64,000 nt of DNA from an uncultured Verrucomicrobiae bacterium (lineage in GTDB: Bacteria; Verrucomicrobiota; Verrucomicrobiia; Chthoniobacterales; UBA10450), in the NCBI GenBank assembly GCA_963834385.1, contig CAWIBO010000003.1, forward strand, positions 32,001-96,000, read 5' to 3'. The notes under the pieces were generated by a model, which saw nothing but the letters and a program-made list of their open reading frames with translations, was not told where the DNA came from and made no database searches. Position numbers and translations under genes: made by a program. The stretch's first letter is position 1; the number at the start of each line of letters is the position of its first letter. Positions 2,338-59,546 of this stretch are shown here, piece after piece.

Positions 2338-2358
2338 AATGCGCGCGCCCGAACCCCG

Positions 2359-41839: not shown

Positions 41840-41940
41840 GGATAACTTTCTCTTTCGGACGAAACCGGCCTCCCCGCGGGCCGGCATGGCGGCGGGTGTT
41901 TCGGCCAGGCTCAACATGACGAGCGCAGCCGGCTTCTCAA

Positions 41941-42780
41941 CTACTTTGCCGGATCGTAGTCCAAGAGCCGGTAAAGGTCCTGCCGGGTCTGCATCCGCTC
42001 CAGCCAGTCGGTCTGCCGGCCATGCTTGCGGAGATCGCGCAAAAAATTCTCCGTGGCGTGCATGGCCACACGCAGCGCGCTCTGCGGGAAGATGACCATG
42101 CGGTAACCGAGATCCTTCAGTTCCCCGAGGGAAAGCAGCGGGCTTTTGCCGAACTCGGTCATGTTGGCCAGGAGCGGCACCCGCACTTCCCGGGCGAAAT
42201 CGCGAAACTCCTCCGGGGACTGCAGCGCCTCCGGGAAAATGGCGTCCGCCCCGGCTTCCACATACTGTTGGGCCCGTTTAACCGCGCTGGCGAAATCTTC
42301 GACCCCGCGCGCGTCGGTCCGGGCGATGATGAGAAAATCGGGGTCGCGCCGGGCCGCGGCGGCCGCCCGCAGTTTGTCGCACATGTCCGCCGACTCAATC
42401 AGCGCCTTGCCCGCAAGATGGCCGCAGCGCTTCGGAAATTCCTGGTCTTCGAGGTGGCAGCCGGCCAGGCCGGCCCGCTCCAGTTCATCAATGGTGCGCG
42501 CCGCGTTCTCCGCCCCGCCGAAACCGGTGTCGGCGTCCACAATCGCCGGGATGGTCACGGCTTTGGCCGCGTAGCCCGCCAGCCGCGCCACCTCGGTCAG
42601 GGTGAGCAGGCCGATGTCGGGCACGCCGCCGGTGAAATTGGAGAGGCCGGCGCCGCTGATGTAAACCGCGTCGAACCCGGCCTGCTCCACCTGGCGGGCG
42701 AGCAGGGCATTGGGCACGCCCGGCATGGCCACGCAATCCTGCGCGATCAGTTCCCGGAGCCGGGCCGTTTTCGACTTCAT
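41941..42780 (-). CDS. prpB: Methylisocitrate lyase
   Basis: DADTGFG, EDQEFPKRCGHLAGK, ARTDA, LANMTEFGKSP. Confidence 0.93.
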   Translation of the reverse strand: MKSKTARLRELIAQDCVAMPGVPNALLARQVEQAGFDAVYISGAGLSNFTGGVPDIGLLTLTEVARLAGYAAKAVTIPAIVDADTGFGGAENAARTIDELERAGLAGCHLEDQEFPKRCGHLAGKALIESADMCDKLRAAAAARRDPDFLIIARTDARGVEDFASAVKRAQQYVEAGADAIFPEALQSPEEFRDFAREVRVPLLANMTEFGKSPLLSLGELKDLGYRMVIFPQSALRVAMHATENFLRDLRKHGRQTDWLERMQTRQDLYRLLDYDPAK

Positions 42781-42781
42781 C

Positions 42782-44179
42782 TTATTGCGCGGGCATGACG
42801 GCGAGCCGCATCAGCTCGTCGACCGATTTCTGTTTGTCGAGTTCCCAGGCATGCGTCATGAAAACGCGGCAGGAGGGCTCGCCGGCGAGCGGGCCGACCA
42901 GCTTGATGAACTTGGTTTCGAGCTGCTCGTCGCTCACCGGGTTCTTCGCGTTGCCGAGCGGATAATCGACCCGCTTGGAGAGGGTGCGCCCGTCCGCCAG
43001 GGTGATGTGGACGATGTTGGCGACGGCCTCGGCGTAAATCGCGCTCAGTTCATCGTTCCGGTCCACCTTCACGTTCTCGAGGAACTTGACGATTTTCGGT
43101 TCGGTGAAGCGGGCCGGCTCAAACTGCGCGTCGGTCACGTCGCCGTCGAAAAGCGCCACCGCCGTGATGTAAGGGAGGCTGTGGTCGGCCGTTTCCCGGT
43201 TCTGTGGCCGCCATTTTTCCGGTTCGCTTCCGATGATATCGACCGAGGCGTCGTGGCTTTCAATCCGCATCGATTTGACCTGGGAAAGGTCGCCGATCTG
43301 CGGCCGCAGGAAGAGGGCGGCCTCGATGGCGCTCTGGCTGTGGTACTCGGCCGGCCAGTATTTGATGCTGGTCTTGAGGATCATGGAGGCGGGACCTTTG
43401 CCCGGGACGGCTTCCGCCTTGACGTCGAAGACGCTGGCGACGTCGCCCAGCGAGACGCCGAGCTGTTTTTCAAAACCCATCTGGCCCTCGAAAATCGGGG
43501 CGGGCCCGGTCATGCCGGCGCGGGCCAGGAGGGCGGAGTAGACACCGTGCCGCGCGGCGTTGGCGAAGGCGACGCCTTTCCAGTGCGAAAGCTCACCCAC
43601 GCGCGACTGCCGCATCCCCATCCCGGCCACACCGGCGATGTTGACCGCGTGCCGCGTCTTTTCGGAATCGAGTTTCATCAATTTGGCCGCGGCCAGCGCG
43701 GTCGAGAAGGCGCCATAGGTGGGATGGTCCCAGCCGCGGGCGCGAATGCTGGCGGCATCGCAGAGACGGCATTGCACCTCGTAGGCGAGGGCGGCCGCCG
43801 CGATCACTTCCTGGCCGGTCGCGCCCACGCTTTCGGCCACGGCCAGGACCGCGGCGAGGTTGTCGCTGGGATGAGCCGGTTCCTTCGAGAGATAGGTGTC
43901 GTTGTAATCAAAATAGCGAATCCCGCAGCCGGAAGCGAAAGCGGCCCAGTCCGCCGGGGCCTTGTGCTTGGTGCCGATGATGGTGCCGCCCTCCTTGGCG
44001 GAGAAATCGAAGGCGACCTTGCGCGCGATCTGGAACGGTTCCTCGTTCCAGGCCCCAAGGGCGCAGCCGAAGGAATCGATCACCCGGCGTTTTACCTCGT
44101 GCACGACGTCGGGCGATAGATCTTCAAAGCGCAGGGCGCAGGCGTAATCGGCAAGCTGATGGGCGAGTGTGGTGGTCAT
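42782..44179 (-). CDS. prpD: 2-methylcitrate dehydratase (MmgE/PrpD)
   Basis: RYFDYNDTY...AHPSDN, GWDH, LSHWKG, RETADHSLPY. Confidence 0.92.
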   Translation of the reverse strand: MTTTLAHQLADYACALRFEDLSPDVVHEVKRRVIDSFGCALGAWNEEPFQIARKVAFDFSAKEGGTIIGTKHKAPADWAAFASGCGIRYFDYNDTYLSKEPAHPSDNLAAVLAVAESVGATGQEVIAAAALAYEVQCRLCDAASIRARGWDHPTYGAFSTALAAAKLMKLDSEKTRHAVNIAGVAGMGMRQSRVGELSHWKGVAFANAARHGVYSALLARAGMTGPAPIFEGQMGFEKQLGVSLGDVASVFDVKAEAVPGKGPASMILKTSIKYWPAEYHSQSAIEAALFLRPQIGDLSQVKSMRIESHDASVDIIGSEPEKWRPQNRETADHSLPYITAVALFDGDVTDAQFEPARFTEPKIVKFLENVKVDRNDELSAIYAEAVANIVHITLADGRTLSKRVDYPLGNAKNPVSDEQLETKFIKLVGPLAGEPSCRVFMTHAWELDKQKSVDELMRLAVMPAQ

Positions 44180-44236
44180 GATAAAGGGAAGCCTGCAATC
44201 TGGCGGGGAAAGCGCCGCGGGCAAGGGGGAGAGGGG

Positions 44237-44292
44237 AGCGGTGGATGGTGAGTGGTGAATGGTGAATGGTGAATGGTGAATGGTGAATGGTG
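44237..44292. repeat. Heptamer tandem array (AATGGTG)
   Basis: Five perfect AATGGTG units (44258-44292) preceded by three degenerate in-phase units. Confidence 0.92.
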
Positions 44293-44329
44293 CGTGACCG
44301 GGGGAAGCCGGGCTGGCACGATGCGCCGC

Positions 44330-46000
44330 ATGCGATTGCTTGGTGCGTTTTTTCTATTTGCTGCGGTGACGGTGTTTGGCCAGGGCGAATCCTACGATGT
44401 GATCATCCGGGGCGGGACTGTCTTTGATGGGACCGGGTCCGCCGGGAGACGGGCGGACGTGGCCATCCGGGGCGACCAGATCGCCGGGATCGGCGATTTC
44501 GCGGACGCGAAGGCGAAGAAGGTGATCGACGCCGCGGGCCTCGCGGTGGCTCCCGGTTTCATCAACATGCTTTCGTGGTCGACCGAGTCGCTCCTGGAGG
44601 ATGGCCGTTCCCAGAGCGAGCTGCGTCAGGGCGTGACCACCCAGATCATGGGCGAAGGTTGGTCGATGGGGCCGTTGAACGAGCGGATGAAGAAGCGGAT
44701 GCTCGACGAACAGAAAGACATTCGGTTCGAGATTGAGTGGACCACCCTGGCGGAATATTTGCGGCACCTCGAGAAGCGGGGCGTCTCCTGCAACGTGGCT
44801 TCGTTCCTCGGCGCCACCACCGTGCGCGAACATGTCATCGGCCTCGATAACAAGCCGCCCACGCCGGCGCAGCTCGAGCAGATGCGCGGCCTGGTCGAGC
44901 AGTCCATGCGCGAGGGCGCGCTCGGGATCGGTTCCTCCCTTATTTATCCGCCCGCCTTTTACGCCAGCACGGAGGAGCTGATCGAGCTTTGCAAGGTGGC
45001 GGCCAGATTCCAGGGCAAATACATCTCCCACCTGCGCAGCGAAGGGAACAAGTTGCTCGAGGCTTTCGAGGAATTGAAACGAATCAGCCGCGAAGCCGGC
45101 ATCCCGGCCGAGCTTTATCATATCAAGGCGGCCGGGAAAGAGAACTGGCCGAAGATGGACGAGTTGCTTCGGCGGATCGAGGCGGCCCAGCAGGAAGGGC
45201 TCAAGATTACCGCGAACATGTACGCCTACCCCGCCGCCGGCACCGGGCTCGATGCTTCCCTCCCGCCCTGGACCGGCGCCGGCGGTTACCCTGAGCTGTT
45301 CAAACGGCTGCGCGATCCGGCCACGCGCAAAAAGATCGCGGAGGAGGTGATGACGCCTTCGCAGGAATGGGAGAACTTTTATCTCGCGGCCGGTTCCCCG
45401 GAGCGGATCATCCCGGTCGGGTTCAAATCGGAGAAACTGAAACCGCTTACCGGGAAAACGCTGGCGGAAATCGCGAAAATGCGCGGGAAAGACCCGGTGG
45501 AGACGCTGATGGACCTGATCGCCGAGGACGAGTCGCGCATCGACACCATTTATTTTCTGATGTCGGAAGAGAACCTGACCAAACAGCTCGCGAAACCGTG
45601 GATCACCTTCGGATCGGACGAGGCGTCCCAGGCCCCGGAAGGCAACTTTCTCAAGAGCAACCCGCATCCGCGCGCTTACGGCAATTTCGCGCGGGTCCTG
45701 GGCAAGTATGTGCGGGAAGAGAAAGCGCTCACGTTGGCCGATGCCATTCATCGCCTGAGCGGCCTGCCCGCGGAACGGCTTGGGCTCGACCGGCGCGGTT
45801 TGCTCAAGGAAGGAAATTTTGCCGATGTGGCGGTGTTCGATCCCGCGACGATCCGCGACCACGCGACGGTCGATAAACCGCACCAGTACGCGACGGGCGT
45901 GAAACACGTCTTCGTCAACGGTGTACAAGTGCTGAAGGACGGCGAGCACACCGGCGCGAAGCCCGGCCGCGCCCTGTGGGGCCCGGGCCGGCGCGAATAA
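44330..46000 (+). CDS. N-acyl-D-amino-acid deacylase family amidohydrolase, secreted
   Basis: Signal peptide; IRGGTVFDGTG, VAPGFIN, SHLRSE, HPRAYGNFARVL, ADVAVFDP. Confidence 0.9.
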   Translation: MRLLGAFFLFAAVTVFGQGESYDVIIRGGTVFDGTGSAGRRADVAIRGDQIAGIGDFADAKAKKVIDAAGLAVAPGFINMLSWSTESLLEDGRSQSELRQGVTTQIMGEGWSMGPLNERMKKRMLDEQKDIRFEIEWTTLAEYLRHLEKRGVSCNVASFLGATTVREHVIGLDNKPPTPAQLEQMRGLVEQSMREGALGIGSSLIYPPAFYASTEELIELCKVAARFQGKYISHLRSEGNKLLEAFEELKRISREAGIPAELYHIKAAGKENWPKMDELLRRIEAAQQEGLKITANMYAYPAAGTGLDASLPPWTGAGGYPELFKRLRDPATRKKIAEEVMTPSQEWENFYLAAGSPERIIPVGFKSEKLKPLTGKTLAEIAKMRGKDPVETLMDLIAEDESRIDTIYFLMSEENLTKQLAKPWITFGSDEASQAPEGNFLKSNPHPRAYGNFARVLGKYVREEKALTLADAIHRLSGLPAERLGLDRRGLLKEGNFADVAVFDPATIRDHATVDKPHQYATGVKHVFVNGVQVLKDGEHTGAKPGRALWGPGRRE

Positions 46001-46012
46001 AGCGAATCCCGG

Positions 46013-46057
46013 GTAGGGTGGGCGTCCCGCCCGCCGGTTTCGGCGTCTCGCCGAAAC
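46013..46057. repeat. GTAG-type REP (second family) with adjacent hairpin
   Basis: GTAG-GGTGGGCG-TCC-CGCCCGCC, then GTTTCGGCG-TCT-CGCCGAAAC. Confidence 0.7.
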
Positions 46058-46101
46058 AATCTTTTCCGCCGCGACCCCGCCGAGTGGCAGAGTCAAAGTT
46101 C

Positions 46102-46180
46102 GTCCACAGATTTCGCAGATTTACGCAGATTTCTGTCGGGCTCTTCAAATCTGTGAAAATGGCTCCGGTAATCTGTGGAC
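46102..46180. repeat. Palindromic element of about 9-bp CRCAGATTT units
   Basis: GTCCACAGATTT CGCAGATTT ACGCAGATTT...AAATCTGTG...AATCTGTGGAC; perfect 11-bp terminal inverted repeat. Confidence 0.75.
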
Positions 46181-46415
46181 CGGTCCTCTATTTCCCAGAT
46201 CGGCATTCGGCGTTCGAAAATTAGAAATCTGTCGTGAACGCGCACCTCAACCGATCATGAAGGATGTTGTTGTGGCGGCTCTGGAGTGTAGCCTTCTCAT
46301 TGTCCCACCCATCGTCGGCGCCATGCGTCCCAAAGCTCATCCCTTTCCGAAGCGAGCAAGGTGGCTTTGTTGCGGCGCGTCGTAGTTTCTCCTTAGTCCC
46401 CAATCCTCCCTGACC

Positions 46416-47543
46416 ATGCGTTCAAAGACTCACTTCTTCCCGAAACGAACTGTGGCTTTCTGCGCCGTGGCCGCGGCGATCTGGCTGTGGCCGGTCGCGC
46501 CGGCCTTTGCGCGGTCCGGGGTTGAGGAGATCGGCTCGCTCCGGAATGCCAAGATCGCTCTCCCGGTTCCGGACAAGAAGACCGAGCTGACCTACTTCGC
46601 GGACTCCTTTTCGAAAGAAGAACTGGCGGAACTGGCGAAGCTCGCGCCCAACCTGCGCATCGTCACCGGGCTGAGCCCGGCGGAGGCGCTGGCGCGCGCA
46701 GAGGAGGCGCACGGTGTGGAAGCGGGCTACGCCACGCGCGAGTTTCTGGCGAAGGCGAAGAACCTGGTCTGGGTGCAGGCGATGAGCGCCGGGGTGGACA
46801 GGCTGACCGCACTGGAGCCGCTGGTGAAGAACGAACGCATCGTGCTGACGAATCATCGGGGCGTGCACGGCCCGGCGATCGCGGATCACGCCATGGCGCT
46901 GCTGCTTGTGCTCACGCGCGATTTGCGGTTTTACGAGGCGAACCAGGCGAAGAAAGTGTGGGACCGCGGGGATCCGGAGCTTGCCCCCATCGCCCTGGAT
47001 GGACGCACCATGCTCGTCGTGGGCCTGGGCGGGATCGGGAGCGAGATCGCGCGCCGCGGGAAAGCGTTCGGCATGACGGTATGGGCCACGCGCCGGAGCG
47101 AGGCGCCGAAGCCGGACTTTGTGGATCGGGTGGAGCTTTCCCCGGCGCTGTTTTCCATGCTGCCGCAGGCGGATGTGGTGGTGATCGCCGCGCCCCTCAC
47201 GCCGGAAACGCGGGGAATGTTTAACAAGGAAGCGTTCGCGGCGATGAAGAAAGGCGCGTTTCTGGTGAACATCGCGCGCGGGGCCATCGTGGTGCAGGAG
47301 GAACTCATCGCCGCGCTGCAAAGCGGCAAGCTGGCCGGCGCGTGCCTGGATGTGACCGACCCCGAACCGCTGCCCGCCAGCAGCCCGCTCTGGGGCATGC
47401 GCAATGTGGTGATCACGCCGCACGTGGCGGCGCAGGCGGAGGTGACAGAGACACGGCGCTGGGCGCTCTTGCGGGAGAACCTGCGCCGGTTCGCCGCGGG
47501 CGAGCCGCTCTATAACGTGGTGGATAAGCAGGCCGGTTATTAG
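46416..47543 (+). CDS. D-2-hydroxyacid dehydrogenase family protein with N-terminal signal-like peptide
   Basis: SAGVD, GLGGIG, NIARG, LDVTDPEPLP, TPHVA. Confidence 0.9.
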   Translation: MRSKTHFFPKRTVAFCAVAAAIWLWPVAPAFARSGVEEIGSLRNAKIALPVPDKKTELTYFADSFSKEELAELAKLAPNLRIVTGLSPAEALARAEEAHGVEAGYATREFLAKAKNLVWVQAMSAGVDRLTALEPLVKNERIVLTNHRGVHGPAIADHAMALLLVLTRDLRFYEANQAKKVWDRGDPELAPIALDGRTMLVVGLGGIGSEIARRGKAFGMTVWATRRSEAPKPDFVDRVELSPALFSMLPQADVVVIAAPLTPETRGMFNKEAFAAMKKGAFLVNIARGAIVVQEELIAALQSGKLAGACLDVTDPEPLPASSPLWGMRNVVITPHVAAQAEVTETRRWALLRENLRRFAAGEPLYNVVDKQAGY

Positions 47544-47573
47544 GGCCGCGCAACACAGGACCGCTGCGCGGTC

Positions 47574-47713
47574 AGCGTGAATCGTAAATCGTAAATTGTG
47601 AATCGTGGCTGTGACGTGAACACGGTCTCTCCTGCTCTCCCGGGAAGTAGGCGCCGCGTGGCTGCGTGGCTTCCGGAGATTTCATCTGTGTCGATCTGGG
47701 AATCTGTGGTTAA
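47574..47713. repeat. Mosaic of heptamer (AATCGTR) and about 9-bp (ATCTGTG) repeat fragments
   Basis: AATCGTA AATCGTA AATTGTG AATCGTG at 47580-47607; ATCTGTG TCG ATCTGGG AATCTGTGGTT at 47684-47711. Confidence 0.7.
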
Positions 47714-47724
47714 AGTCCTTCTCA

Positions 47725-49080
47725 ATGAGCAAGGTTTATTCTGATGCCACGGCCGCGCTCGACGGCCTTCTGCACGACAACATGACGATCGCCGCGGGCG
47801 GGTTTGGCCTCTGCGGGATCCCGGAAAACCTGATTGCCGCGTTGCGCGACAGCGGGGCCAAGGGGTTGACCATCGTCGGCAACAACGCCGGCGTGGATGG
47901 TTTCGGCATGGGCGTGCTCCTGAACACGCGCCAGGTGAAAAAGGTGATGGCCTCCTACGTGGGCGAAAACAAGGAGTTCGAGCGCCAGGTGCTCGCGGGC
48001 GAGCTGGAACTCGAGCTGATTCCGCAGGGGACGCTGGCGGAACGGTTGCGCGCCGGCGGCGCCGGCATCCCGGGCTTTTACACCCGGACCGGTTTTGGCA
48101 CCAAGCTGACCGAGGGAAAGGAAACGAAAAAGTTCGGCGACCAGGATTATGTGCTCGAACCGGGGATCAAGGCGGATGTCTCGCTGGTGAAAGCGTGGAA
48201 AGGCGACAAGTCGGGCAACCTGATCTTCCGCAAAACTTCCCGGAACTTTAATCCGATGATCGCAAGCTGCGGGAAGGTTTGCGTGGCCGAGGTGGAGGAA
48301 TTGGTCGAAGTCGGCGAACTCGATCCGGACCAGGTTCATACCCCGGGCATTTTCGTGGACCGGATCATGCAGGGGGCAAAGTACGAGAAGCGGATCGAGT
48401 TCCGCACCGTGCAGGGGAGCGGCGGCGCACAGAAGGAGAACCCGATGCGCGAGCTGCTGGCGAAACGAGCCGCCCAGGAGTTGCGCGAAGGGTTTTACGT
48501 CAACCTTGGCATCGGCATCCCGACCCTGGTGGCGAATTATATTCCGGAGGGGATGAACGTGACCCTGCAATCCGAGAACGGTTTGCTCGGGATCGGGCCG
48601 TTCCCGACGGAGGAAGAGGTCGACCCCGACCTGATCAATGCCGGGAAGCAGACAATCACGACCCGGCCCGGCTCGGCCTTTTTCTCGAGCGCGGATTCGT
48701 TTGCCATGATCCGGGGCGGCCACATTGACCTGGCCATCCTGGGCGCGTTCGAAGTGACGGACCGCGGCGACATCGCGAACTGGATGATCCCGGGAAAGAT
48801 GGTGAAAGGGCCAGGCGGCGCGATGGATCTCGTCGCCGGGGTGCAACGCGTGGTGGCGGTGATGGAACACACTTCGAAGGACGGCAGCCCGAAGATCTTG
48901 AAAGAGTGCACCCTGCCGATCACCGGCCTGGGCGTGGTCGATTTGATCATCACCGAGCTGGCGGTGTTTGAGGTGAAGGAGGGAGGCGGACTGGTCTTGA
49001 TCGAGCTGCAACCGGGCGCGGAGCTGGAGGAGGTGAAGGCGAAAACGGGGGCGGGGTTTGAAGTAAGAATTAAGAAGTAA
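47725..49080 (+). CDS. Succinyl-CoA:3-oxoacid CoA-transferase with A and B subunits fused
   Basis: [26 protein letters not shown] (A part); YVNLGIGIP, catalytic [13 protein letters not shown] (B part) in one ORF. Confidence 0.93.
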
Positions 49081-49116
49081 GAGTTAAGAACTAAGAAGTA
49101 AGAAGGCAGAATGCAG
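49061..49116 (+). repeat. Heptamer array AAGNNAG (8 units) upstream of the four-helix-bundle gene
   Basis: aagtaag aattaag aagtaag agttaag aactaag aagtaag aaggcag aatgcag. Confidence 0.9.
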
Positions 49117-49458
49117 AAGAATGACTTGCGCGAACGCACCAAGGCTTTCGCGTTGCGAATCATTCGCTTGTCCGAATCCTTGCCCAGATCGAGCGAGGCG
49201 CAGGTTCTTGTCCGGCAGATATTGCGTTCCGGCACTTCGATCGGAGCGAATTACCGCGAAGCGTCCCGCGCCCGCAGCAAAGCTGAGTTCATCTCAAAAT
49301 GCGGCGAGTGTCTCCGCGAAGTGGACGAAACAGCTTATTGGCTGGAACTCCTGGCGGAATCGGGGTTGGCGCCCGCCAGAAAACTGCAGCCGCTGCGCGC
49401 GGAATGTGACGAGATAACCGCAATTTTCGTCACGATCGTAAAGCGGGCCAAGGGCTGA
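49111..49458 (+). CDS. Four-helix-bundle protein (23S rRNA-IVP / Avd-like family)
   Basis: DLRERTKAFALRII, QILRSGTSIGANYREA, SKAEFISK, ETAYWLELL. Confidence 0.92.
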   Translation: MQKNDLRERTKAFALRIIRLSESLPRSSEAQVLVRQILRSGTSIGANYREASRARSKAEFISKCGECLREVDETAYWLELLAESGLAPARKLQPLRAECDEITAIFVTIVKRAKG

Positions 49459-49462
49459 TCTT

Positions 49463-49497
49463 TTTCCTTCAGCCTTCTCACTTCTTCCTTCTTACTT
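49463..49497 (-). repeat. Inverted heptamer array AAGNNAG (4-5 units) downstream of the four-helix-bundle gene
   Basis: Minus strand reads aagtaag aaggaag aagtgag aaggctg aaggaaa. Confidence 0.82.
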
Positions 49498-49502
49498 TCC
49501 CC

Positions 49503-50930
49503 ATGACTTCCCCTTCCCCCGAACGTCCGGGCCTGCTCGCGCGCATGGCTTTGGGCATGACGGCCTGGACCGAGCGCTGGGTGCCTGATGCGTTTATTTT
49601 TGCGCTGGTCGCCACGGTGATCGTGGTGGTGGCGGGGGTGGCGTTCACGCCCTCGAGCCCGGCGGAAGTGGTGGACGCATGGGGGAAAGGTTTCTGGGAG
49701 CTGATCCCGTTCACGCTCCAGATGGCGCTGATCATCATCACCGGCCATGTGCTCGCCACCTCGCGGCCGATCGGAAAGGTTATTCGCGCCATCGCCACGT
49801 GGCCGACGACGCCGCGGAACGCGGTTGCGCTCGTGGCCTTTTTCGCCATGACCAGCTCGTGGTTCAACTGGGGGTTCAGTCTCATCTTCAGCGCCGTCCT
49901 CGCCAAGGAGGTGGCGCGCCGGGTCGTCGGGGTGGATTATCGGGCGCTGGCGGCCGCGAGTTTTCTCGGGCTCGGCAGCGTCTGGGCGCAGGGCCTGAGC
50001 GGGTCGGCCGCGCTCCAGATGGCGACGCCGGGCGCGCTCCAGCCGCAGATCCGCGACATCGTCGCGGCGGGAGGGATCGTGCCGGACGGAATCATTCCAT
50101 TCCGCGACACCATCTTCCTCTGGCAGAGCCTGGTCTCGGTCGTGGTGGAGATCGTTATCGTGACGGCGGTGATGTGGCTGGTGACACCGCCGGCCGGACG
50201 CGGGAAGACGGCGGCTGATCTCGGGATTGAGCTGGGCCGTGGCGAAATGGAGCCGCCCGTGACCGTGGAGAAACCGGTGCCGGGCCAGTGGCTGGAGCAT
50301 TCCCCCATCCTGAACTGGCTCATCGTTCTCATCGGCGGGACCTATCTGGTCCGTTATTTCATGCAGGCGAGCGAGCCGTTGAACGCAATCAATCTCAACA
50401 TCGTGAACCTGACGTTCCTGCTGCTCGGTTTTCTTCTGCACAAAACGCCGGCCCGCCTGATGCACGCGGTGCAGGGGGCGACGCCTGCCGTCTGGGGGGT
50501 GATCCTGCAATTTCCGTTTTATGCCGGGATTGCGGGCATCATCGTCTCGACCGCGTTGAGCCAGCAGATCGCGCATGCTTTCGTCGGGATTTCGACGGCA
50601 CAAACGTTTCCGGCGGTGGTGGCGATTTACTCGGCGGTGCTGGGGGTGTTTGTGCCGTCGGGCGGCTCGAAATGGGTGGTGGAAGCGCCTTACGTGATGG
50701 CGGCGGCGCATGAACTGAAGGTGCACCTCGGCTGGGTGGTGGCGGCCTACGACCTGGGGGAGGCGCTGGCCAACCTGGTGCAGCCCTTCTGGATGCTGCC
50801 GATCCTCGGCCTGTTCAAGCTGCGGGCGCGCGACATCATGGGCTACACCTTTGTGGTTTTCCTGGTGCTGGTGCCGGTGGTGCTGGTCCTTGTCACCGTC
50901 CTCGGGGCGACGCTAAAATATCCGTTATAG
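49503..50930 (+). CDS. atoE: Short-chain fatty acid transporter
   Basis: ERWVPDAFIFA, WGKGFWEL, QFPFYAGI, FVPSGG, QPFWMLP. Confidence 0.92.
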   Translation: MTSPSPERPGLLARMALGMTAWTERWVPDAFIFALVATVIVVVAGVAFTPSSPAEVVDAWGKGFWELIPFTLQMALIIITGHVLATSRPIGKVIRAIATWPTTPRNAVALVAFFAMTSSWFNWGFSLIFSAVLAKEVARRVVGVDYRALAAASFLGLGSVWAQGLSGSAALQMATPGALQPQIRDIVAAGGIVPDGIIPFRDTIFLWQSLVSVVVEIVIVTAVMWLVTPPAGRGKTAADLGIELGRGEMEPPVTVEKPVPGQWLEHSPILNWLIVLIGGTYLVRYFMQASEPLNAINLNIVNLTFLLLGFLLHKTPARLMHAVQGATPAVWGVILQFPFYAGIAGIIVSTALSQQIAHAFVGISTAQTFPAVVAIYSAVLGVFVPSGGSKWVVEAPYVMAAAHELKVHLGWVVAAYDLGEALANLVQPFWMLPILGLFKLRARDIMGYTFVVFLVLVPVVLVLVTVLGATLKYPL

Positions 50931-51037
50931 CGCGCCGGCACGGGGGGCGGGACGTTGACGTGTTCCCGCCCCATCGTAGGTTCGGGCGCGCATCGTTCCG
51001 CCCACCGTGCGCGTATTTCAGGGGCCTCTCTTTTTCT

Positions 51038-52225
51038 ATGATCAAACTTGAACATCCGCTCGACGACGAATCACGCGCCTTTCTCAAAACCGTGGAGGAA
51101 TTTGCGCAGAAGGAAGTGGCGCCGCACGCCGACAAGTGGGATCACGACGAGCAATTGCCGCGCGAGATTTTCACCAAGGCGGGCAAGATCGGGATGATGG
51201 GGATGGTGGCGCCGAAGGAGTTCGGCGGGCGCGGCCTGAACTATGTCACCGCCGCCCTGGCGGTGAAGGAACTGGGGAAACACATGGCGGCGCTGTCGAT
51301 GGACATCGCGGCGCACAACGCCCTCGCTGTCGGCCAGATCAACATGTACGGCACGGCCGAGCAGAAGAAGAAATACCTGCCGAAACTGATCAGCGGCGAA
51401 TGGCTGGGCGCCTGGTGTCTGACCGAGCCGAACGCGGGGAGCGACACCGGCGGGATCGAGACGCGCGCGGAAGAGCACGGCGAACACTGGCACATCAACG
51501 GCCTGAAACATTTCATCACCAGCGGCCGGGTGGCTGATCTGCTGGTCGTCATCGCCACCACCGGGCGGAGCGAGAAGGGGAAGAACGAGATCAGCGCCTT
51601 TATCACCATGAAAGACCAGGTGGAAGGCGTGCGAAAGATCCACACCTACGGGATGCGGGCGAGCGAGACCTCGGAGTTGCGCTTCAATAATTCCAAGGCG
51701 GAAATCCTGGGCGAACGCGGCCGTGGCCGGGAACAGGCGCTTTCCGTGCTCGACCGGGGACGGATCAGCATCGCGGCGCTGGCCGTGGGGATCGCGGAGG
51801 CGGCCTTTGACCGGGCCAATTCCTACGCCAACGCGCGTAAACAGTTTGGGCATCCGATCGGAAGCTTTCAGGCGGTGCAATGGATGCTGGTCGACTCGGC
51901 CATGGAACTCGAAGCGTCCGAAGTGATGACGATGCACGCGGCGCACCTGCAGGATCTGGAGCAGAACACGACCAAGGAATCGGCCATGGCCAAGTTGTTC
52001 GCCTCCGAATCAGCGGTGAAGATTTGCGATCGCGCCATGCAGATCCACGGCGGTTACGGTTACAGCCGGGACCTGCCGATCGAGCGGTATCTGCGGGACG
52101 CGAAGCTTTGCACGATCGGTGAAGGGACCTCGGAGGTGCAGCGGCTGGTCATTGCCCGGCACGTCCTGAAGGAAGCCAAGCCGCTGGCGCTCGCGCATCG
52201 CGAACCGCGCCAGCCGAATGCCTGA
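51038..52225 (+). CDS. Acyl-CoA dehydrogenase (short/branched chain type)
   Basis: CLTEPNAGSD, NGLKHFITSG, RKQFGHPI, QIHGGYGY, IGEGTSEVQR. Confidence 0.93.
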   Translation: MIKLEHPLDDESRAFLKTVEEFAQKEVAPHADKWDHDEQLPREIFTKAGKIGMMGMVAPKEFGGRGLNYVTAALAVKELGKHMAALSMDIAAHNALAVGQINMYGTAEQKKKYLPKLISGEWLGAWCLTEPNAGSDTGGIETRAEEHGEHWHINGLKHFITSGRVADLLVVIATTGRSEKGKNEISAFITMKDQVEGVRKIHTYGMRASETSELRFNNSKAEILGERGRGREQALSVLDRGRISIAALAVGIAEAAFDRANSYANARKQFGHPIGSFQAVQWMLVDSAMELEASEVMTMHAAHLQDLEQNTTKESAMAKLFASESAVKICDRAMQIHGGYGYSRDLPIERYLRDAKLCTIGEGTSEVQRLVIARHVLKEAKPLALAHREPRQPNA

Positions 52226-52335
52226 ATAAGGGATGCGTCCCCGTGGGACGCCACAAGCGGTTCCCATCCTGGCCTTCCAAAGGACAACGTCGCAAATTCG
52301 GTTGAGCGCGCCCGTCCCGCTGGGGAGGCTGGGAA

Positions 52336-52812
52336 ATGAAGACCGACTTTATTCTCACCGCTCTGCCGAAGGAGACGTTCGAGCGGTTCTTCGCCCTGTC
52401 GGACGGGCAACTGGCGGCGGTTCAGGGCCGGAGGATGATCGCCGATGCGGCGCCGGGGTTCCCGTGCCGCGTCAGCCTCGAGGATGCGGCGATCGGAGAA
52501 ACCGTTTTGCTTTTGAATTTTCGCCATCAGCCGGCCGATTCGCCCTATCAGGCATCAGGCCCGATCTTCGTGCGGGAAAAGGCGCGGCAGGCGCAGCTGG
52601 CTCCGAACGAGGTGCCGGAGGCGATTCGTCGCCGCCTGCTCTCGCTGCGGGGTTATGATGACCGCGGTTTCCTGGTGGGGGCGGACGTGGTCGAGGGGCG
52701 GGAACTCGAGAAGGGGATCGCGCGTCTCTTCGCGGAAAAGCGCGTGGCCTATTTGCATCTGCACCATGCCAGGCCCGGATGTTACGCCTGCCGGGTGGAC
52801 CGGGTGGAATGA
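52336..52812 (+). CDS. DUF1203 family protein
   Basis: GFPCRVSLEDA, SPYQASGPIFV, LHLHHARPGCY. Confidence 0.85.
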   Translation: MKTDFILTALPKETFERFFALSDGQLAAVQGRRMIADAAPGFPCRVSLEDAAIGETVLLLNFRHQPADSPYQASGPIFVREKARQAQLAPNEVPEAIRRRLLSLRGYDDRGFLVGADVVEGRELEKGIARLFAEKRVAYLHLHHARPGCYACRVDRVE

Positions 52813-52834
52813 CGGAGAATGGTGTGAGGGCGTC

Positions 52835-53700
52835 TCATCGCGACGTCCCGCAGGTTGTCTCTCTCTGGAACTGCGGGTGTTGACGGATGGCGTGCGCGAA
52901 GTCGGCGTGATCCGACGGGTCGATCTCGTCGGGAAACTTCGCCTGGGAACGCTCCCAGCGCTCCAGCCAGGTGTGATCAAGCAATTCCCGGTCGTGCTGG
53001 GGAGCCGTCGGCGTCAGCGCGATGGTGGTCTGTTCCTTCAGGCCCATGGCGGTGCCGCGCGCGACAAAGAAACCGGCGGCGAGAAGGCGGGCGCGCACGG
53101 CGGTGGAACGGCTGTAGGTGAAAAGTTCGACGGCCCGGTGGCCGCAGACCGCAAAGAGTCGGCGGAAGGTGGCGAGCGTCCAGGCGTCCCCGGAAGTTTT
53201 TCCCGAGAACATGTCGTAAAAGATGAGGTCGGGTGGAGTTGCGGCCTCCGGGATGGTGGCCGGGAAGTCACCGGAAACGAGGGACCAGCTTACGCCGGGA
53301 TGATGTTTTGATTCCCAGGCGCCGTTTCCGAGGAGCGCGGGCGGCCCGGCATGGCGCAAATAGGGGAAAACGTTCCGGTGCAACAGCGCAAGCCGAAGCG
53401 AATCGAGATCGTTTTCGAAGCTCACGAGGTGAAGCGGACGGACCGGGCCGACCTGCGCCTGTTCCTCGTAACAACGGATCGCGGCCATGGCGTTGGCGGC
53501 GGCGCCGAGACCAACGTCCCAGATGACGAGCGGCTCGCCCGGTTCGCGCAGGCGTTCCGCCAGGCGGGCCTGGTCGACATAAAGGGTGCGCGCCTCTTCC
53601 ATCGGGTCGGAACGCGAATGCATGATCTCGCCGGAAGCGACGTGCCGGATGCTGGCGAAACCTTCCCAGGCCTGGTGCACCTCGTAGGCGCCGAGGGATG
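52835..53700 (-). CDS. MnmC/MnmD-like SAM-dependent methyltransferase domain (probable C-terminal half of a Tgt fusion)
   Basis: GEIMHS, IWDVGLGAAAN, VSFEND, DLIFYDMFS, TYSRSTAVRARLLAAGF. Confidence 0.8.
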
Positions 53701-54869
53701 GTGCGCCGCTTCTTGTTCGGCTTGGGCGCCACGATCGGATTGTCGAGGTCGTTCTCGTGCAGGAAGGCGCGCTTCTTTTCGTAAAGCTCGAGGAAACGAT
53801 CCTCCAGGATGCTGGCGCGGATCTCGCGCATGAGCTGGTGATAAAAGTGGATGTTATGTTTGCCGAGCAACTGCCAGCCGAGCGTTTCCGCGCTTTTCGT
53901 CAGGTGATGGAGATAGGCGCGCGAATAACGGGCACAGGTCGGGCAGCCGCATTCGGGGTCGAGCTTCTCCTCCGCGAACCGGTAAATGCCGCGCCGCATC
54001 TGCAGGAACCCGCGCGAGGTGAAAACAGCCCCGCGCTGCGCGAGCTGGGTCGGCATGATGCAGTCAAACATGTCCACGCCGCGATGGACCGCCTCGAGCA
54101 GATCGAGCGGCGTGCCCACGCCCATGAGGTAGCGCGGTTTGTCCGGGGGCAGCAGCTCGGCGGTGAAGGCGCAGACATCTTCCCGTTCGCTTTTGCTTTC
54201 GCCCACGGCCAAACCGCCGATGGCGTAGCCGTCGAAGGCCATCTCGCGGAGGGCGGCGGCGCTTTCGCGGCGAAGCTTGGGGAAGAGCGCGCCCTGCACG
54301 ATGCCAAAAAGGGCCTGGGGCGAATCGCCGCGGGCGGCGAGGCTGCGGGCGGCCCAGCGGTTGGTCACCTCGAGCGCCTCCCGCGCGGTCGCCTCGTCCG
54401 CGGTGGAGGCAATGCACTGGTCGAGCGCCATCATGATGTCGCTGCCGATGGCTTTCTGGGTCTCGATGCTCACCTCAGGGCTGAGCAGGATGGTTTTGCC
54501 GTCGAGATAGCTCTGGAAAAGCGCCCCCTCCTCGCCCAGCGAACGCGCGTGCGGCAGTGAGAAGATCTGGTAACCGCCGGAATCGGTCAGGACCGAGCGT
54601 TCCCAGCTCATGAACTTGTGGATGCCGCCGAGTTTCCGGAAGACCTCGACGCCCGGCCGGAGAAGAAGGTGATAGGTATTGGCGAGGAGGATCTGGGAGC
54701 CGGCCTCCTCGAGGGTCCGCGTGAGCTGGGCTTTCACGGTGCCTTTCGTGCCGACCGGCATGAAGAGCGGGGTCAGCACCTCGTTGTGCAGGGTGCGAAA
54801 ACGGGCCGCTCGCGCGCGGGAACCGGTGGCCTGCGCCTCCAGCCGGAAATCAAGCCGCGCCTCGCTCAT
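53701..54869 (-). CDS. tgt: tRNA-guanine(34) transglycosylase, bacterial preQ1 type (no stop at the normal C-terminus; frame break near 53695)
   Basis: TPLFMPVGT, NTYHL, TDSGGYQ, LDQC, GIVQG, GGLAVGE, YLMGVG, DMFDC, Zn site CGCPTC...H. Confidence 0.93.
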
Positions 54870-54885
54870 GGTTTGCCGCTCTGCG

Positions 54886-56196
54886 CTAGTCCCGGGTCGT
54901 GACCACCGTCTCATCCTCGGGCGCGACCGCGAGAAAAGGAGCGAAGAGATCGAGCGAACGCGCGGGGATGGTGGCCTGGACGAGGGTGAACCCTTCCTCG
55001 TAGGAGAGGTCGAGCACGGTCCCTTCCCGATGCAGCCGGGCGAGGAGGTCGCCCCGGTCGGACGGCACCCGGAGCGCAATGGTCATCGCATCGCGCGCGA
55101 CAAAGTCCGAGATGCGCTCGACGAGGACGTCGATACCGGCACCGGTTCGGACGGAGATGAAGAGGGCCTCCGGGAAATGACGGCGCAGCTCGGCCAGTTC
55201 GTCGGGGTTCGTCACCTTGTCGATCTTGTTGAAGACAACCAGCATTCGCTTGGTCTCGGCGCCAAGGTCCTTCAGGACCCGCATGGTGGTGTTGTAAAAC
55301 TCCATCACGGCCGGTTGCGAGGCGTCGAGGACGTGGATGAGAAAGTCGGAGAACGCGGCCTCCTCCAGGGTGGCGTTGAAGGCTTCGACGAGCTGGTGGG
55401 GCAGGTTCCGGACAAAGCCGACCGTATCGGTCAGGACGAGCGGCTGCTTGTTCGGCAGAGCGATTTTGCGGGTGGTGGTGTCGAGGGTGGCGAAAAGCTT
55501 GTCTTCGATGAATACGTCCGCGCCGGTGAGCCGCCGCAGGAGTGAGGATTTGCCGGCGTTGGTATAGCCGACGATGGCGGCGTTGGGCACGGGCGCGCGT
55601 TTCCGGTCCTTGCGCTGGGTGGCGCGGGCGCGGCGCACTTCCTCGAGCTCGCGTTTCAGACGATCGATCTGGAGACGGATCTTGCGTTTGTCCTGTTCGA
55701 GCTGGCTTTCGCCTTCGCCCTTGGCCCCGATGCCGCCGCCCTGCTGGCCAAGGTGGCTCCAGGCCCGGGTCAATCGCGGCATGGAGTATTGCATCCGGGC
55801 GAGGTCGACCTGGATGCGGGCTTCGCGGGTCCGGGCGCGGGCCCCAAAGATGTCGAGGATGATCTCGTGGCGGTCGGCCACCGTGATCCCGGAAAGTTCC
55901 TCCCAGTTGCGCTGCTGCGACGGGCTCAGTTCGTTGTCGAAAATGAGGACGTCGCATTCGTTCGCTTTCGCGAAATCGACGATTTCCTGCGCTTTGCCCG
56001 ACCCGATGAGGTAGCGGGCATGGTTTTCCCGGTGAGAGATGAGTTTCCGGGCGACGATGGGAATCCCAAGCGTTTCGACGAGCTCGGCCAGTTCCGCGAG
56101 GAGATCTTCCGCCTCCGGTTTCGCGAGGGGATCGATGTAGGCCCCGAGAAGGAGAGCCCGCTCCACCATCTTCTCCTTCTGTTTGATCTCAAACAT
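54886..56196 (-). CDS. hflX: GTPase HflX
   Basis: VGYTNAGKSS, LFATLDTT, TDTVGF, NKID. Confidence 0.96.
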   Translation of the reverse strand: MFEIKQKEKMVERALLLGAYIDPLAKPEAEDLLAELAELVETLGIPIVARKLISHRENHARYLIGSGKAQEIVDFAKANECDVLIFDNELSPSQQRNWEELSGITVADRHEIILDIFGARARTREARIQVDLARMQYSMPRLTRAWSHLGQQGGGIGAKGEGESQLEQDKRKIRLQIDRLKRELEEVRRARATQRKDRKRAPVPNAAIVGYTNAGKSSLLRRLTGADVFIEDKLFATLDTTTRKIALPNKQPLVLTDTVGFVRNLPHQLVEAFNATLEEAAFSDFLIHVLDASQPAVMEFYNTTMRVLKDLGAETKRMLVVFNKIDKVTNPDELAELRRHFPEALFISVRTGAGIDVLVERISDFVARDAMTIALRVPSDRGDLLARLHREGTVLDLSYEEGFTLVQATIPARSLDLFAPFLAVAPEDETVVTTRD

Positions 56197-56293
56197 GCGA
56201 GGGCAGTATAGCAGAGGACGCGGCGTTTGCCGGGGGTGAGGGGATGAACGCGGGAACGTGCGGAGCGAAACAGAAATGGTGGATCTGCTCCCA

Positions 56294-56364
56294 GGCTCGA
56301 CGGAGTCTCGCCCTACCGGGGGAGATGAGGAGCGTGAATGGAGGATGGTGAATCGTGAATGGTG
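56294..56364. repeat. GTAG REP (minus strand) next to a heptamer array
   Basis: Minus strand GTAG-GGCGAGACTCCGTCGAGCC (56294-56316); gagcgtg aatggag gatggtg aatcgtg aatggtg (56330-56364). Confidence 0.7.
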
Positions 56365-56379
56365 CAGCAGCAGGTGCCG

Positions 56380-58218
56380 CTACACCATCGGCCGGAAACG
56401 ACCGACGGATTCCTGCAGGCGGGCGGTGATCTGGCCGAGGGAACAGACTTCCACGGCCTCGAGCAGGGCGGGGAATGAGTTTTCGCCGCGCTCCACCGCG
56501 TCCGCGAGCTTGTCCAGGGCCGGGCCGGACTTGGCGGCATTCTTCTTCTTGAACTTCTTGAGCCGCTCAACCTGCAGCTTCTGTCGCGCGCGCGGGGTGC
56601 GGGCGAGCTCGAATTCCGGCATTTCCTCGTTTCCGTTCCGGTAGCGGTTTAAACCGATGATCGGGCGGGTTCCGTCGTAAATCTGCTGTTCGTAGCGGTG
56701 AGCCGCGCTCTGGATCTGGCTGCGCTGGTAACGATTCTCCACCGCGGCGAGGACGCCGCCGAGCCGCTCGATCTCGCGGAACTCGTCCAGGATGGCCTTT
56801 TCCACCGCGCGTTCGACCGCCTTCATGCCGGGCGATCCGCTGAGCATGTTCATGGTGTGCTTAAAGATGCCTGATTCCTCGAGCAGGATGGCCTGGCCAT
56901 GCGCGGCCAGCCGGATCCATTCCTCGCTCGGGGTGGTGAAGGGCTCGTCCGCGCTGTTTGAATGGCAGGAGTTGGTCCCGTTCATGTAGGCGAGCATCAA
57001 CTCGACCGCGGTGCGGGTAAGGTTATTCTTGAACTCGGCGGCGATGAGGGACCGGCCGCTCGTCTGCGTATGCAGCTTGAACATCTGGCCGCGCGGCCCG
57101 GCGCCGAAAACGTCACGCATGCCGATGGCCCAGATCTTTCGGGAAACCCGCGAGAGGGCGATGTATTCCACCTCGAGCCCGCAATCGAGGAAGAAGGAAA
57201 GACGCGGGGCGAACTGGTCGACGTCGAGACCGCGCGCCGCCAGCATTTCCGCGTAGGCGAATCCGTTCGAGAGGGTGTAGGCCGCCTGCTGCACCGGGGT
57301 GGAGCCGGCTTCCTGGATGTGATAACCGCTGATCGAGACCGGATACCAGCGCGGCATCTGTTCGCTGCTCCACTCGATCATGTCGCACAGGAAACGCAGC
57401 GACGCTTCCACCGGGAAGATGGTCTCGTTCTGCGCCTGCACTTCCTTGAAGATGTCGGCCTGGATGGTGCCGCGAAGTTTCGGGACCACGCCCGGGCCAA
57501 AGCGGCGTTTCGCGGCCGCGATATACATCGCCATGATGATCGGGGCCGGGCCGCTGATGGTCATGGAGGCGGAGAAATCGGGCGAGCCGACGTCGAACCC
57601 ATCGTAAAGCCGGACCATGTCCTCGACGGTGTCGACGGCCACGCCGCCCTCGCCAATTTTGCCGAAGACGCCGTCGGCATCCGAATCGATGCCGTAAAGC
57701 GTGGGACCGTCAAAAGCGGTGCTGAGGCGCTTGGATCGCTGGTGGGCGCTGAGAAAATGGAAACGCTTGTTGGTGTCCTCCGCCAGCATCAGCCCGGAGA
57801 AGAGGCGGGTCGGTTCCTCGGGCGGACGGGCCCCGTTTTTCGCTGCCGGCGCCGCGGCGGACTGACCGTTGCCGCCAGGGCGCGCCTTTTCCAGGCTGCC
57901 CTGTTCGATTGGCGGTTGCGGGAGCGGTTCCAGGTACATCTCGCGGTAGGCGCCGTTGAGGAAGGGGAATTCACCGGGCAAACCTTCGCTGAAAAAATAG
58001 CGGGCGATCTCGCCCGGTTCATCGATCTCAGGGAGGGCCAGGCGCGGCAGCTCGAGCCCGGTGGGGGCACGGGTGACCGGGGTTTCGGCCTTGATCTTTT
58101 CCCAGCGCGCCTGCAATTCGCGCGCGAATTTTTCGTCGGTCCGCGCTTTTTTCACCTGTTCGAGCACGAATTTCCCGTGCTGATCCACGGCTTCGATGAC
58201 AGCTCCGAGTTTGCTCAT
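56380..58218 (-). CDS. Acyl-CoA mutase catalytic subunit, IcmF C-terminal-like (isobutyryl-CoA mutase signature)
   Basis: EGLPGEFPF, PTRLFSG, RLSTAFD, GKIGEGGV, RGTIQADIFKEVQAQN, SISGYHIQEAG, HTQTSGRSL. Confidence 0.88.
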   Translation of the reverse strand: MSKLGAVIEAVDQHGKFVLEQVKKARTDEKFARELQARWEKIKAETPVTRAPTGLELPRLALPEIDEPGEIARYFFSEGLPGEFPFLNGAYREMYLEPLPQPPIEQGSLEKARPGGNGQSAAAPAAKNGARPPEEPTRLFSGLMLAEDTNKRFHFLSAHQRSKRLSTAFDGPTLYGIDSDADGVFGKIGEGGVAVDTVEDMVRLYDGFDVGSPDFSASMTISGPAPIIMAMYIAAAKRRFGPGVVPKLRGTIQADIFKEVQAQNETIFPVEASLRFLCDMIEWSSEQMPRWYPVSISGYHIQEAGSTPVQQAAYTLSNGFAYAEMLAARGLDVDQFAPRLSFFLDCGLEVEYIALSRVSRKIWAIGMRDVFGAGPRGQMFKLHTQTSGRSLIAAEFKNNLTRTAVELMLAYMNGTNSCHSNSADEPFTTPSEEWIRLAAHGQAILLEESGIFKHTMNMLSGSPGMKAVERAVEKAILDEFREIERLGGVLAAVENRYQRSQIQSAAHRYEQQIYDGTRPIIGLNRYRNGNEEMPEFELARTPRARQKLQVERLKKFKKKNAAKSGPALDKLADAVERGENSFPALLEAVEVCSLGQITARLQESVGRFRPMV

Positions 58219-58234
58219 GGTCTGGTTCTTTCTC

Positions 58235-59485
58235 CTAGCGGCGGGCGCGCCCGGCGGCCTGGGCGCGTTTCCTGGGGCGTGGTGAGTCCGCTCTGCGCGT
58301 CTTTGCCCGGGCCGGTCTGGTGCCGTTGCGATCGCTCGCGGCGGCCGATTCCTTTTCGGTCTTCCTGATCAGTTGATAAAGTTTATCGACCCCGGCGTCG
58401 CGGTGTCGTTTTGCCACGGTGGCGACGATCTGCTGTGCGCGCTTGTTCTGGGTCAGGCGCTGCTCGATCTCGGAGAGCGCAGCCTTGGCCCGGTCGAGGT
58501 CGGTCTTGTTCACCACCACGATATCGGCCACGTCGAGCATGACGATTTTCTGCAACTGCAGGCGCGCGCCGTAGTCGGGGTTCATCACGAGGATGGTCTG
58601 GTCGACCAGCCGGCTGCGGAACGGGAGGGCTTCCTGGCCGGTGCCGACCGTCTCGATGATGACGTAATCGAAACCGGAATGGGCGAGGAGTTCGAGACAG
58701 CTCTCGGTCGCCGGGGAAAGTCCGCCGGCCTGGCCGCGGGTGGCCATGCTGCGCATGAAAACGCGGTCGTCCTGCGAATTGATCATGGTGGCGCGGTCGC
58801 CGAGGAGGGCGCCCTCGCCCACCACGCTGGGATCATGCGAAAGGATGGCAAGGCGCGCCTTCGGTTCGTGCCGGAGAAAACGGAGGATCAATTCGTCGAT
58901 CAGGGTGGTCTTGCCGGCGCCGCCGGGGCCGGTGAAACCGATCACTTTGGTCTCGGCGGCTTTCGACTCCCGATTTTGAACTTTCGATTTCCCGGGGCGT
59001 TTGCCCCTGGCAAAGGCGTCCTCGATCTCGGTGAGCTGGCGCGGGAGAGCGAGCGCCGGTTTCCCGGCCGGCCGGCTTTTCCGGCCTTTGCCGTAGTGCT
59101 TGCGCACGTACTCGACCATGTCGGTGAGGGAGGTGCCGGCGAAAAAGATCTGGTCGACACCTTTCGCCTTCATCAGGCGGGCATCATCGTGCGTGATGGT
59201 GCCGCCACCGCCCCCGAAGACCTTGATGTCGCCGGCGCCGGCCTTGCGGAGCTGGCGCACGACCTCGGCGAAGAACTCGATGTGCCCGCCGTTGTAACTG
59301 GAGATGCCGACGGCGGCGACGTCCTCCTGGATGGCGGCGCGCACGATGTCGCTGACGTAGCGATGGAATCCAAGATAAACCACCTCGATCCCGTGCCGGA
59401 TAAACTCGAGGTTGATGGTGTTGATGGCACTGTCGTGCCCGTCACAGATCGGCACCGCGGTCAGGACGCGAATGGGAGCAGCCAT
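58235..59485 (-). CDS. Cobalamin-binding domain fused to MeaB/MeaI GTPase (IcmF N-terminal-like)
   Basis: DGHDSAIN, AAIQED, SSYNGGHIEFF, GFTGPGGAGKTT, ALLGDR, IIETVGTGQ, NKTD. Confidence 0.88.
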   Translation of the reverse strand: MAAPIRVLTAVPICDGHDSAINTINLEFIRHGIEVVYLGFHRYVSDIVRAAIQEDVAAVGISSYNGGHIEFFAEVVRQLRKAGAGDIKVFGGGGGTITHDDARLMKAKGVDQIFFAGTSLTDMVEYVRKHYGKGRKSRPAGKPALALPRQLTEIEDAFARGKRPGKSKVQNRESKAAETKVIGFTGPGGAGKTTLIDELILRFLRHEPKARLAILSHDPSVVGEGALLGDRATMINSQDDRVFMRSMATRGQAGGLSPATESCLELLAHSGFDYVIIETVGTGQEALPFRSRLVDQTILVMNPDYGARLQLQKIVMLDVADIVVVNKTDLDRAKAALSEIEQRLTQNKRAQQIVATVAKRHRDAGVDKLYQLIRKTEKESAAASDRNGTRPARAKTRRADSPRPRKRAQAAGRARR

Positions 59486-59546
59486 GGGAAGGCAAACTAC
59501 CGGCAAACGCTTGTCCGGCAACCTTTCGGGCCTAAGCTCGCGCGGA

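Follow-up and report, generated by a model that had tools for sequence, protein, structure and literature searches.

A Tgt paralog fused to an MnmD-like methyltransferase: a candidate route to N-methyl-preQ1 in RNA beside queuosine synthesis

Why does a Tgt gene run on, without a stop codon where Tgt ends, into a methyltransferase, and do the two enzymes act on the same base? The question is raised by a gene on the minus strand of a 64,000-nucleotide stretch of DNA from an uncultured Verrucomicrobiae bacterium (contig CAWIBO010000003.1), referred to here as the window. From its ATG at 54869 to the stop at 52835 the gene spans 2035 nt (3n+1). The original prediction described it as a Tgt followed by an MnmD-like domain, and the coordinates and motifs it gave are correct. 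The gene, its parts and its upstream neighbour are as follows.

53700 to 54869, minus strand: Tgt paralog domain, residues 1–390 of the fusion, with catalytic residues, preQ1-pocket residues and zinc ligands intact.
54036 to 54047, minus strand: clade signature Q-L-A-Q, which stands for R286-x-x-R289 (Z. mobilis numbering) of canonical Tgt.
53697 to 53702, minus strand: site of the surplus base, in the linker between the domains; the base most likely stems from an assembly error.
52835 to 53695, minus strand: MnmC2/MnmD-like class I SAM methyltransferase domain, running to the stop at 52835.
53207 to 53215, minus strand: motif IV, which reads D-M-F and matches D193/F195 of Aquifex DUF752; the next P and N of DxFxP..N are missing.
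54886 to 56196, minus strand: hflX, whose end lies 16 nt upstream of the fusion gene.

In profile searches, the Tgt part read from ATG 54869 scored 469 bits against PF01702 and 448 bits against TIGR00430, above the family cut-off of 307, which places it within bacterial Tgt. The methyltransferase part, read in the next frame, scored 42 bits against PF05430 and 73 bits against NF033855, the latter below the cut-off of 136.

The 3n+1 length had been explained by one surplus base in a single continuous protein, and coding potential does switch frame at 53697/53698. At 160 loci we examined how far an anchor in Tgt lies from one in the methyltransferase; 13 were not scorable, and at all of the 147 others the spacing is a multiple of three, so that 3n+1 occurs only in the window. 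The base at 53699 is also missing from one short-read contig of a close relative (97% identical, 178 nt, six other letters different), which is a single contig of low depth (2.2) and represents the relative rather than the window's own reads. Four further genes in the window are split by frame changes.

2350 to 4705, plus strand: pheT.
5119 to 6220, plus strand: carA.
23043 to 26213, plus strand: mfd.
32534 to 33611, minus strand: alr.

As the original prediction had it, pheT, carA and alr are each broken by a +1 shift, judged from frame coordinates, and mfd lies in three pieces; frequent indel errors are a property of the window's assembly. With the in-frame relatives and the contig lacking the base, these breaks uphold both the single fused protein and the view of the frameshift as an error: the fusion is almost certainly real and the frameshift an assembly error. 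A real frameshift in this strain, making the gene a pseudogene or a recoded gene, would leave the family-level question unaffected. The loss of either half in some relatives speaks for it, but with none of the 147 scorable relatives out of frame at the junction, key residues all kept in both halves, the same kind of break in pheT and carA and no extra base in the 97%-identical contig, we regard it as very improbable. Those 147 in-frame relatives likewise rule out a programmed frameshift or two separate genes.

Full-length homologs, for which the original prediction called, proved to be abundant. A search of proteins of 502–2000 aa gave 2361 matches among 8000 scored candidates, and both domains were present in all 120 matches listed. 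At 80 GTDB loci we found 71 complete in-frame fusions, five in-frame fusions that run off a contig end, two that are broken within Tgt with the junction in frame, and two with the methyltransferase alone; at 80 metagenome loci the corresponding numbers were 59 fused, 16 fused but cut, four at a contig edge and one alone. The junction is thus in frame at 78 and 75 of the loci, respectively. The nearest relatives are labelled mostly Chthoniobacterales or Verrucomicrobiae, and more distant fused members come from Bdellovibrionales, Bacteriovoracia, Deltaproteobacteria/Binatia, Riflebacteria and Leptospira idonii, a cultured carrier (WP_135761645.1). The fusion family is large and extends across Verrucomicrobiota, Bdellovibrionota, Binatia, Riflebacteria and Leptospira idonii. 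Within the order Chthoniobacterales its spread is patchy, with 25 carriers in our sample of 81 genomes. In G220 there are two copies of the fusion, and the methyltransferase of the second (L159:3160-5175) has decayed.

The surroundings of the gene are not conserved. Besides the gene itself, the largest neighbour clusters cover 13 of 80 loci, and a search of the flanking loci returned no queA, queF or mnmG match, one queG match and one yajC match. tRNA genes were called at 8 of 60 loci, one call overlapping the gene itself, and no GUN tRNA was among them. The methyltransferase half had no match in phage or plasmid collections, which were searched for signs of a mobile element, and the neighbours of standalone methyltransferases were uninformative. 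hflX is likely to be co-transcribed with the fusion gene in the window; it adjoins 7 of the 80 related loci besides and is not a conserved neighbour. The region around the fusion (40691-58218) contains methylcitrate-type genes (PrpD-like, PEP-mutase/ICL family, citrate synthase), a fused two-domain CoA transferase, a short-chain fatty acid transporter, an acyl-CoA dehydrogenase and a methylmalonyl-CoA-mutase-family gene, which probably serve short-chain fatty acid use and are unrelated to the fusion. On the minus strand at 56380-59521, a B12-binding and MeaB GTPase gene is followed by a mutase gene, an arrangement that we take to resemble the split IcmF type. The window also encodes a bacterial type IB DNA topoisomerase (11724-12785, minus strand) and a 115-aa ORF (49111-49458, plus strand), presumably similar to the four-helix-bundle 23S rRNA intervening-sequence proteins.

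The original prediction placed the product of the fusion in tRNA instead of queuosine, and this part has to be abandoned. The window's genome holds a housekeeping canonical tgt followed by a gene labelled yajC-like after the known operon, together with queA, queG and queF, and all four GUN tRNA genes (Asp, Asn, His, Tyr) are present. Co-occurrence with a second tgt and queA, suggested as a check, was found throughout: a second, unfused tgt is present in all 25 fusion genomes of the order sample and in 12 of 12 further ones (37/37 checked in total), and queA in 25 of 25. Three of the second tgt copies are cut by contig ends and still show the canonical PTRxAR. Replacement of the queuosine pathway by the fusion is ruled out by the second tgt and queA in these genomes. 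Moreover, because the housekeeping tgt was never lost in the fusion genomes checked, it is unlikely that the fused Tgt is a mere substitute for it. A queF match was found in 12 of 25 fusion genomes and in 24 of 56 others, showing no link to the fusion, and is missing in the remaining 13 fusion genomes. As a separate observation, nine order genomes (G048, G216, G155, G168, G180, G192, G195, G204 and G219) have two queA-like genes, of which the second is in most cases divergent.

We set the fused Tgt against 30 canonical ones, each of them from the same order, with residues numbered as in Z. mobilis by alignment. The fused domains form a single clade (114 tips, support 0.97, stem 0.95). In 113 of 113 fused sequences D102, D156, C158, Q203, G230, L231, A232, V233, E235, M260, D267, D280 and the zinc ligands are invariant; for most of these residues roles in catalysis or preQ1 selection have been described (PMC5699537, PMC3660597, PMC6165067). 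The set contains the catalytic residues D102 and D280, the guanine pocket D156, Q203 and G230, and the preQ1 determinants L231/A232, C158 and V233, and the bacterial preQ1 pocket originally recognised from the Cys of DQC and the Val of GGLAVGE is indeed there. Judged by these invariant active-site residues, the fused Tgt should be an active preQ1-type transglycosylase. In contrast, Arg is found at position 286 in none and at 289 in one of the 113 fused sequences, compared with 30 of 30 canonical Tgts at both. A more distant fused set gave Arg in 4 and 6 of 114 sequences, respectively (118 examined, four without the motif). The canonical PTRxARNG thus becomes PxQxAQ[RQ]G in the fused Tgts, in which E157 is mostly Q or H. 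We take the contacts of R286 and R289 in the 1q2r complex to be U35 and the backbone of the anticodon, and, given that presumed RNA-binding role, their loss would suggest a changed RNA target. In the available text of the literature searched, PMC5395182 included, we found no statement on RNA contacts of the two arginines. As the fused Tgt is never a substitute, is catalytically intact and carries a family-wide change in one loop, it probably has a target of its own. The structural model of an intact homolog, P0004 (pLDDT 92.5, pTM 0.63), superposes on Z. mobilis TGT (1efz) with a TM-score of 0.94 and is consistent with two folded domains joined by a loose linker, without a fixed mutual orientation.

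For the methyltransferase domain, Aquifex MnmC2/DUF752 is the best sequence match (E 1e-12, 23% identity) and 3vyw the top fold match (Z 22.6, rmsd 3.1, 238 aligned). Motif I (GxGxxxN) and the equivalents of E133, D174, catalytic D193, F195 and Y225 (the motif VI Tyr) are kept, D193 and other functional residues of the DUF752 enzyme being described in PMC3527978. The domain therefore shows a class I DUF752 fold with motif I, the DxF Asp and the motif VI Tyr, and the fold match and the retained catalytic Asp support the MnmD-type assignment made originally. The DXFXP sequence and the following Asn (N200) of motif IV are not found: the window reads DMFSGK, and Pro occupies the DxFxP position in 9 of 118 distant fusions. 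The NF033855 cut-off of 136 was reached by none of the 62 relatives scanned, standalone ones included. A separate standalone MnmC2-like clade in Chthoniobacterales (L141–L158, e.g. L150:3472-4347) keeps DPYSPxxNP; it occurs in 18 of 81 genomes and together with MnmM in 0 of 10, and is a candidate MnmD, below the NF033855 cut-off. Other Verrucomicrobiota classes commonly have radical-SAM (YtqA/MnmL-like)–MnmC2 fusions of about 570–650 aa (L004–L013; 10/10 checked), which sit on a long branch separate from the fused methyltransferase. These ~600-aa MnmC2 proteins had been candidates for bifunctional MnmC, which the ten checked rule out.

The coupling of the two halves is proposed because the base that Tgt places at position 34, within a U33-x34-U35 loop, has the primary amine of an aminomethyl group, which is what MnmD methylates. 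In the available text of Jaroch et al. 2023 (bioRxiv 10.1101/2023.12.21.572861), TGT–MnmC2 fusions are listed in one sentence with no function proposed; these (PF01702 + MnmC2) are very probably the family studied here. The same preprint describes MnmC1–MnmC2 and YtqA/MnmL–MnmC2 fusions, in which the methylase's substrate, with its aminomethyl group at position 34, is shown or proposed to come from the partner, and this precedent favours coupling. It also lists MnmC2 fusions with the unrelated MqnD and YhdJ, which count against it. The literature search, with most subscription journals outside its scope, found no further study of the fusion and no methyl-preQ1 in tRNA, and in a term search of the available text of a 2026 review (PMC13602947) the term preQ1 was absent. 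The architecture has thus already been named in print, and no test of the fusion was found in the literature searched.

Our preferred reading, which we hold tentatively, is that the fusion is a dedicated second Tgt whose preQ1 is inserted at a changed or restricted RNA target and then N-methylated, alongside the normal queuosine pathway. Besides the precedent of substrate-making partners, it is favoured by the stability of the fusion and by a domain that keeps the DUF752 catalytic and SAM residues but has mostly lost the DxFxP Pro. A close alternative, which we judge somewhat less probable, is that two independent wobble modifiers share one chain: an MnmD that converts nm5(s2)U34 to mnm5(s2)U34, following the MnmEG ammonium route as in Aquifex, and an active spare Tgt making preQ1-34 for QueA/QueG. 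MnmC2 is the best match of the domain in sequence and fold, the nearest characterised enzyme is an nm5U34 methylase, and the fused Tgt lies above the TIGR00430 cut-off, all of which favours this alternative; the score far below the NF033855 cut-off speaks against it, though all 62 scanned proteins share that property. It leaves unexplained the retention of housekeeping tgt in 37 of 37 genomes and the family-wide loss of R286/R289.

We looked at which genomes hold another candidate nm5U34 methylase. In the window's genome (89.6% complete) both mnmE and mnmG are present, and searches for MnmC1, MnmM, MnmL and a further PF05430 protein gave no match; 15 of the 25 fusion genomes similarly have no other candidate. 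Both findings favour an MnmD role. However, an intact fusion coexists with a standalone MnmC2-like gene in 9 of 25 fusion genomes, the catalytic Asp and motif I being kept in 9/9, and with MnmM in G152 and G267, so that another candidate accompanies the intact fusion in 10 of 25 order genomes plus G267. This coexistence favours a new substrate. MnmM and MnmC are described as mutually exclusive (Cho et al., PMC9976899). In 35 of 81 order genomes neither an MnmC2-like nor an MnmM match was found, which also counts against the reading as MnmD plus spare Tgt; in these genomes the xm5U pathway may end early or rely on a novel methylase. MnmL, without a match in any of the 81 order genomes, is uninformative. 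Separately, G000 shows mnmE twice with near-equal scores (C4:2019-3320 and C2:864241-865542), and contig C4 (10.9 kb) may be a partial duplicate of C2.

Other observations lean towards nm5U34. Relative to its Tgt, the fused methyltransferase evolves faster where a standalone gene exists: the median methyltransferase/Tgt terminal ratio is 3.21 (n=8) with a standalone gene and 2.02 (n=13) without (p=0.064), a comparison of three families that are not independent, with very short Tgt branches dropped and G000 not included. The methyltransferase has been lost in G201, where L160 is a fusion-type Tgt without it, and truncated in G414, where the fusion (L262) ends near residue 556, and a substitute is present in both. 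Conversely, the methyltransferase survives without a fused Tgt in G204 and G209, neither of which has a substitute (G165, cut by a 1.1-kb contig, was left out of this count). The combination of fusion and second MnmC2-like match was found in 0 of 351 phylum genomes, where only the best candidates (at most six per genome) were scored and class is a confounder, and this too was counted against coupling, as were the absence of a queF link and the scarcity of pathway genes (one queG, one yajC) among flanking loci. Fisher tests across the order genomes were all non-significant (p 0.08–0.81), the genomes being kin and not independent. The genomic evidence on preQ1 versus nm5U34 as the substrate is thus split, and the reading as MnmD plus spare Tgt stays close because MnmC2 joins unrelated proteins too and because the loss pattern favours it.

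A further reading has the methyl group added first, to free (salvaged) preQ1 or to a related base, which Tgt then inserts already methylated; in another form of it, the pair acts on non-tRNA RNA. The 13 fusion genomes without a queF match would salvage preQ1, the domains of the P0004 model lack a fixed mutual orientation, and bacterial Tgt can modify mRNA in vitro (PMC5699537). On the other hand, the base pocket (C158, L231, A232, V233) is as in canonical Tgt, and MnmC2-family enzymes are described as tRNA-acting (PMC3527978). Taken together, these points make it an improbable reading. A further point against it is that the changes lie in the loop that we take to be RNA-facing.

In the preferred reading, that of a second Tgt with N-methylation, the Tgt domain would first remove guanine and insert preQ1, as its invariant active-site residues suggest. 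The changed R286/R289 loop would set its RNA target apart from the one that the housekeeping enzyme uses: it could be some of the GUN tRNAs only, or sites elsewhere, if the presumed role of the arginines is right. The tethered MnmD-type domain would then transfer the SAM methyl group to the primary amine of the inserted preQ1, and on chemical grounds the product would be 7-(methylamino)methyl-7-deazaguanine in RNA, with QueA probably blocked at that site. In genomes that lack another nm5U34 methylase, this domain may complete mnm5s2U as well, a side activity that would explain the methyltransferase loss pattern. A bolder version, which we think unlikely, is that loss of R286/R289 retargets Tgt to G34 of non-GUN tRNAs or to other RNA, the fused domain capping preQ1 as N-methyl-preQ1; on this view RNA would contain a new nucleoside, and several bacterial phyla would run two deazaguanine pathways in parallel. 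If the preferred reading is true, N-methyl-preQ1, so far reported in phage DNA, would be an RNA base as well, made by a tRNA uridine methylase that has come to use a guanine analogue as its substrate; the bacteria concerned live in soil and freshwater and belong to several phyla. The annotation Tgt would then also cover a paralog whose target is different. Even if the chain holds an MnmD and a spare Tgt, the fusion provides a candidate mnm5s2U methylase for Chthoniobacterales.

Finally, we compared the fusion with known systems. Like bacterial Tgt (Z. mobilis TGT, PDB 1efz/1q2r), the fused Tgt has the catalytic and pocket residues, the zinc site and the fold (47% identity, TM 0.94); unlike it, the fused Tgt is a second copy outside the tgt–yajC locus, carries a C-terminal methyltransferase, and has PxQxAQ[RQ]G for PTRxARNG and mostly Q or H for E157. 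With Aquifex MnmC2/DUF752 the methyltransferase shares the fold, motif I and the equivalents of E133, D174, D193, F195 and Y225, whereas DxFxP..N reads DxFSxK and the domain sits behind a Tgt. The DpdA/DpdM DNA systems are marked by a larger, arcTGT-like DpdA, a dpd cluster and a DUF3109 protein, none of which was found here: the fused Tgt is of the bacterial tRNA type, the methylase belongs to PF05430, and the 80 loci share no conserved neighbour cluster. The original prediction named N-methyl-preQ1 as a phage DNA base, and this was borne out, as mdPreQ1 in phage DNA is reported to be made by DpdA and DpdM (Cui et al., bioRxiv 10.1101/2023.04.13.536721); the enzymatic parallel goes less far, since DpdM is unrelated to the fused methyltransferase, being a DUF3109 metal-binding protein and not a class I SAM methyltransferase, and the phage target is DNA. 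What the phage pair and the fusion would have in common is the proposed base and the order of steps, insertion by a transglycosylase followed by N-methylation.
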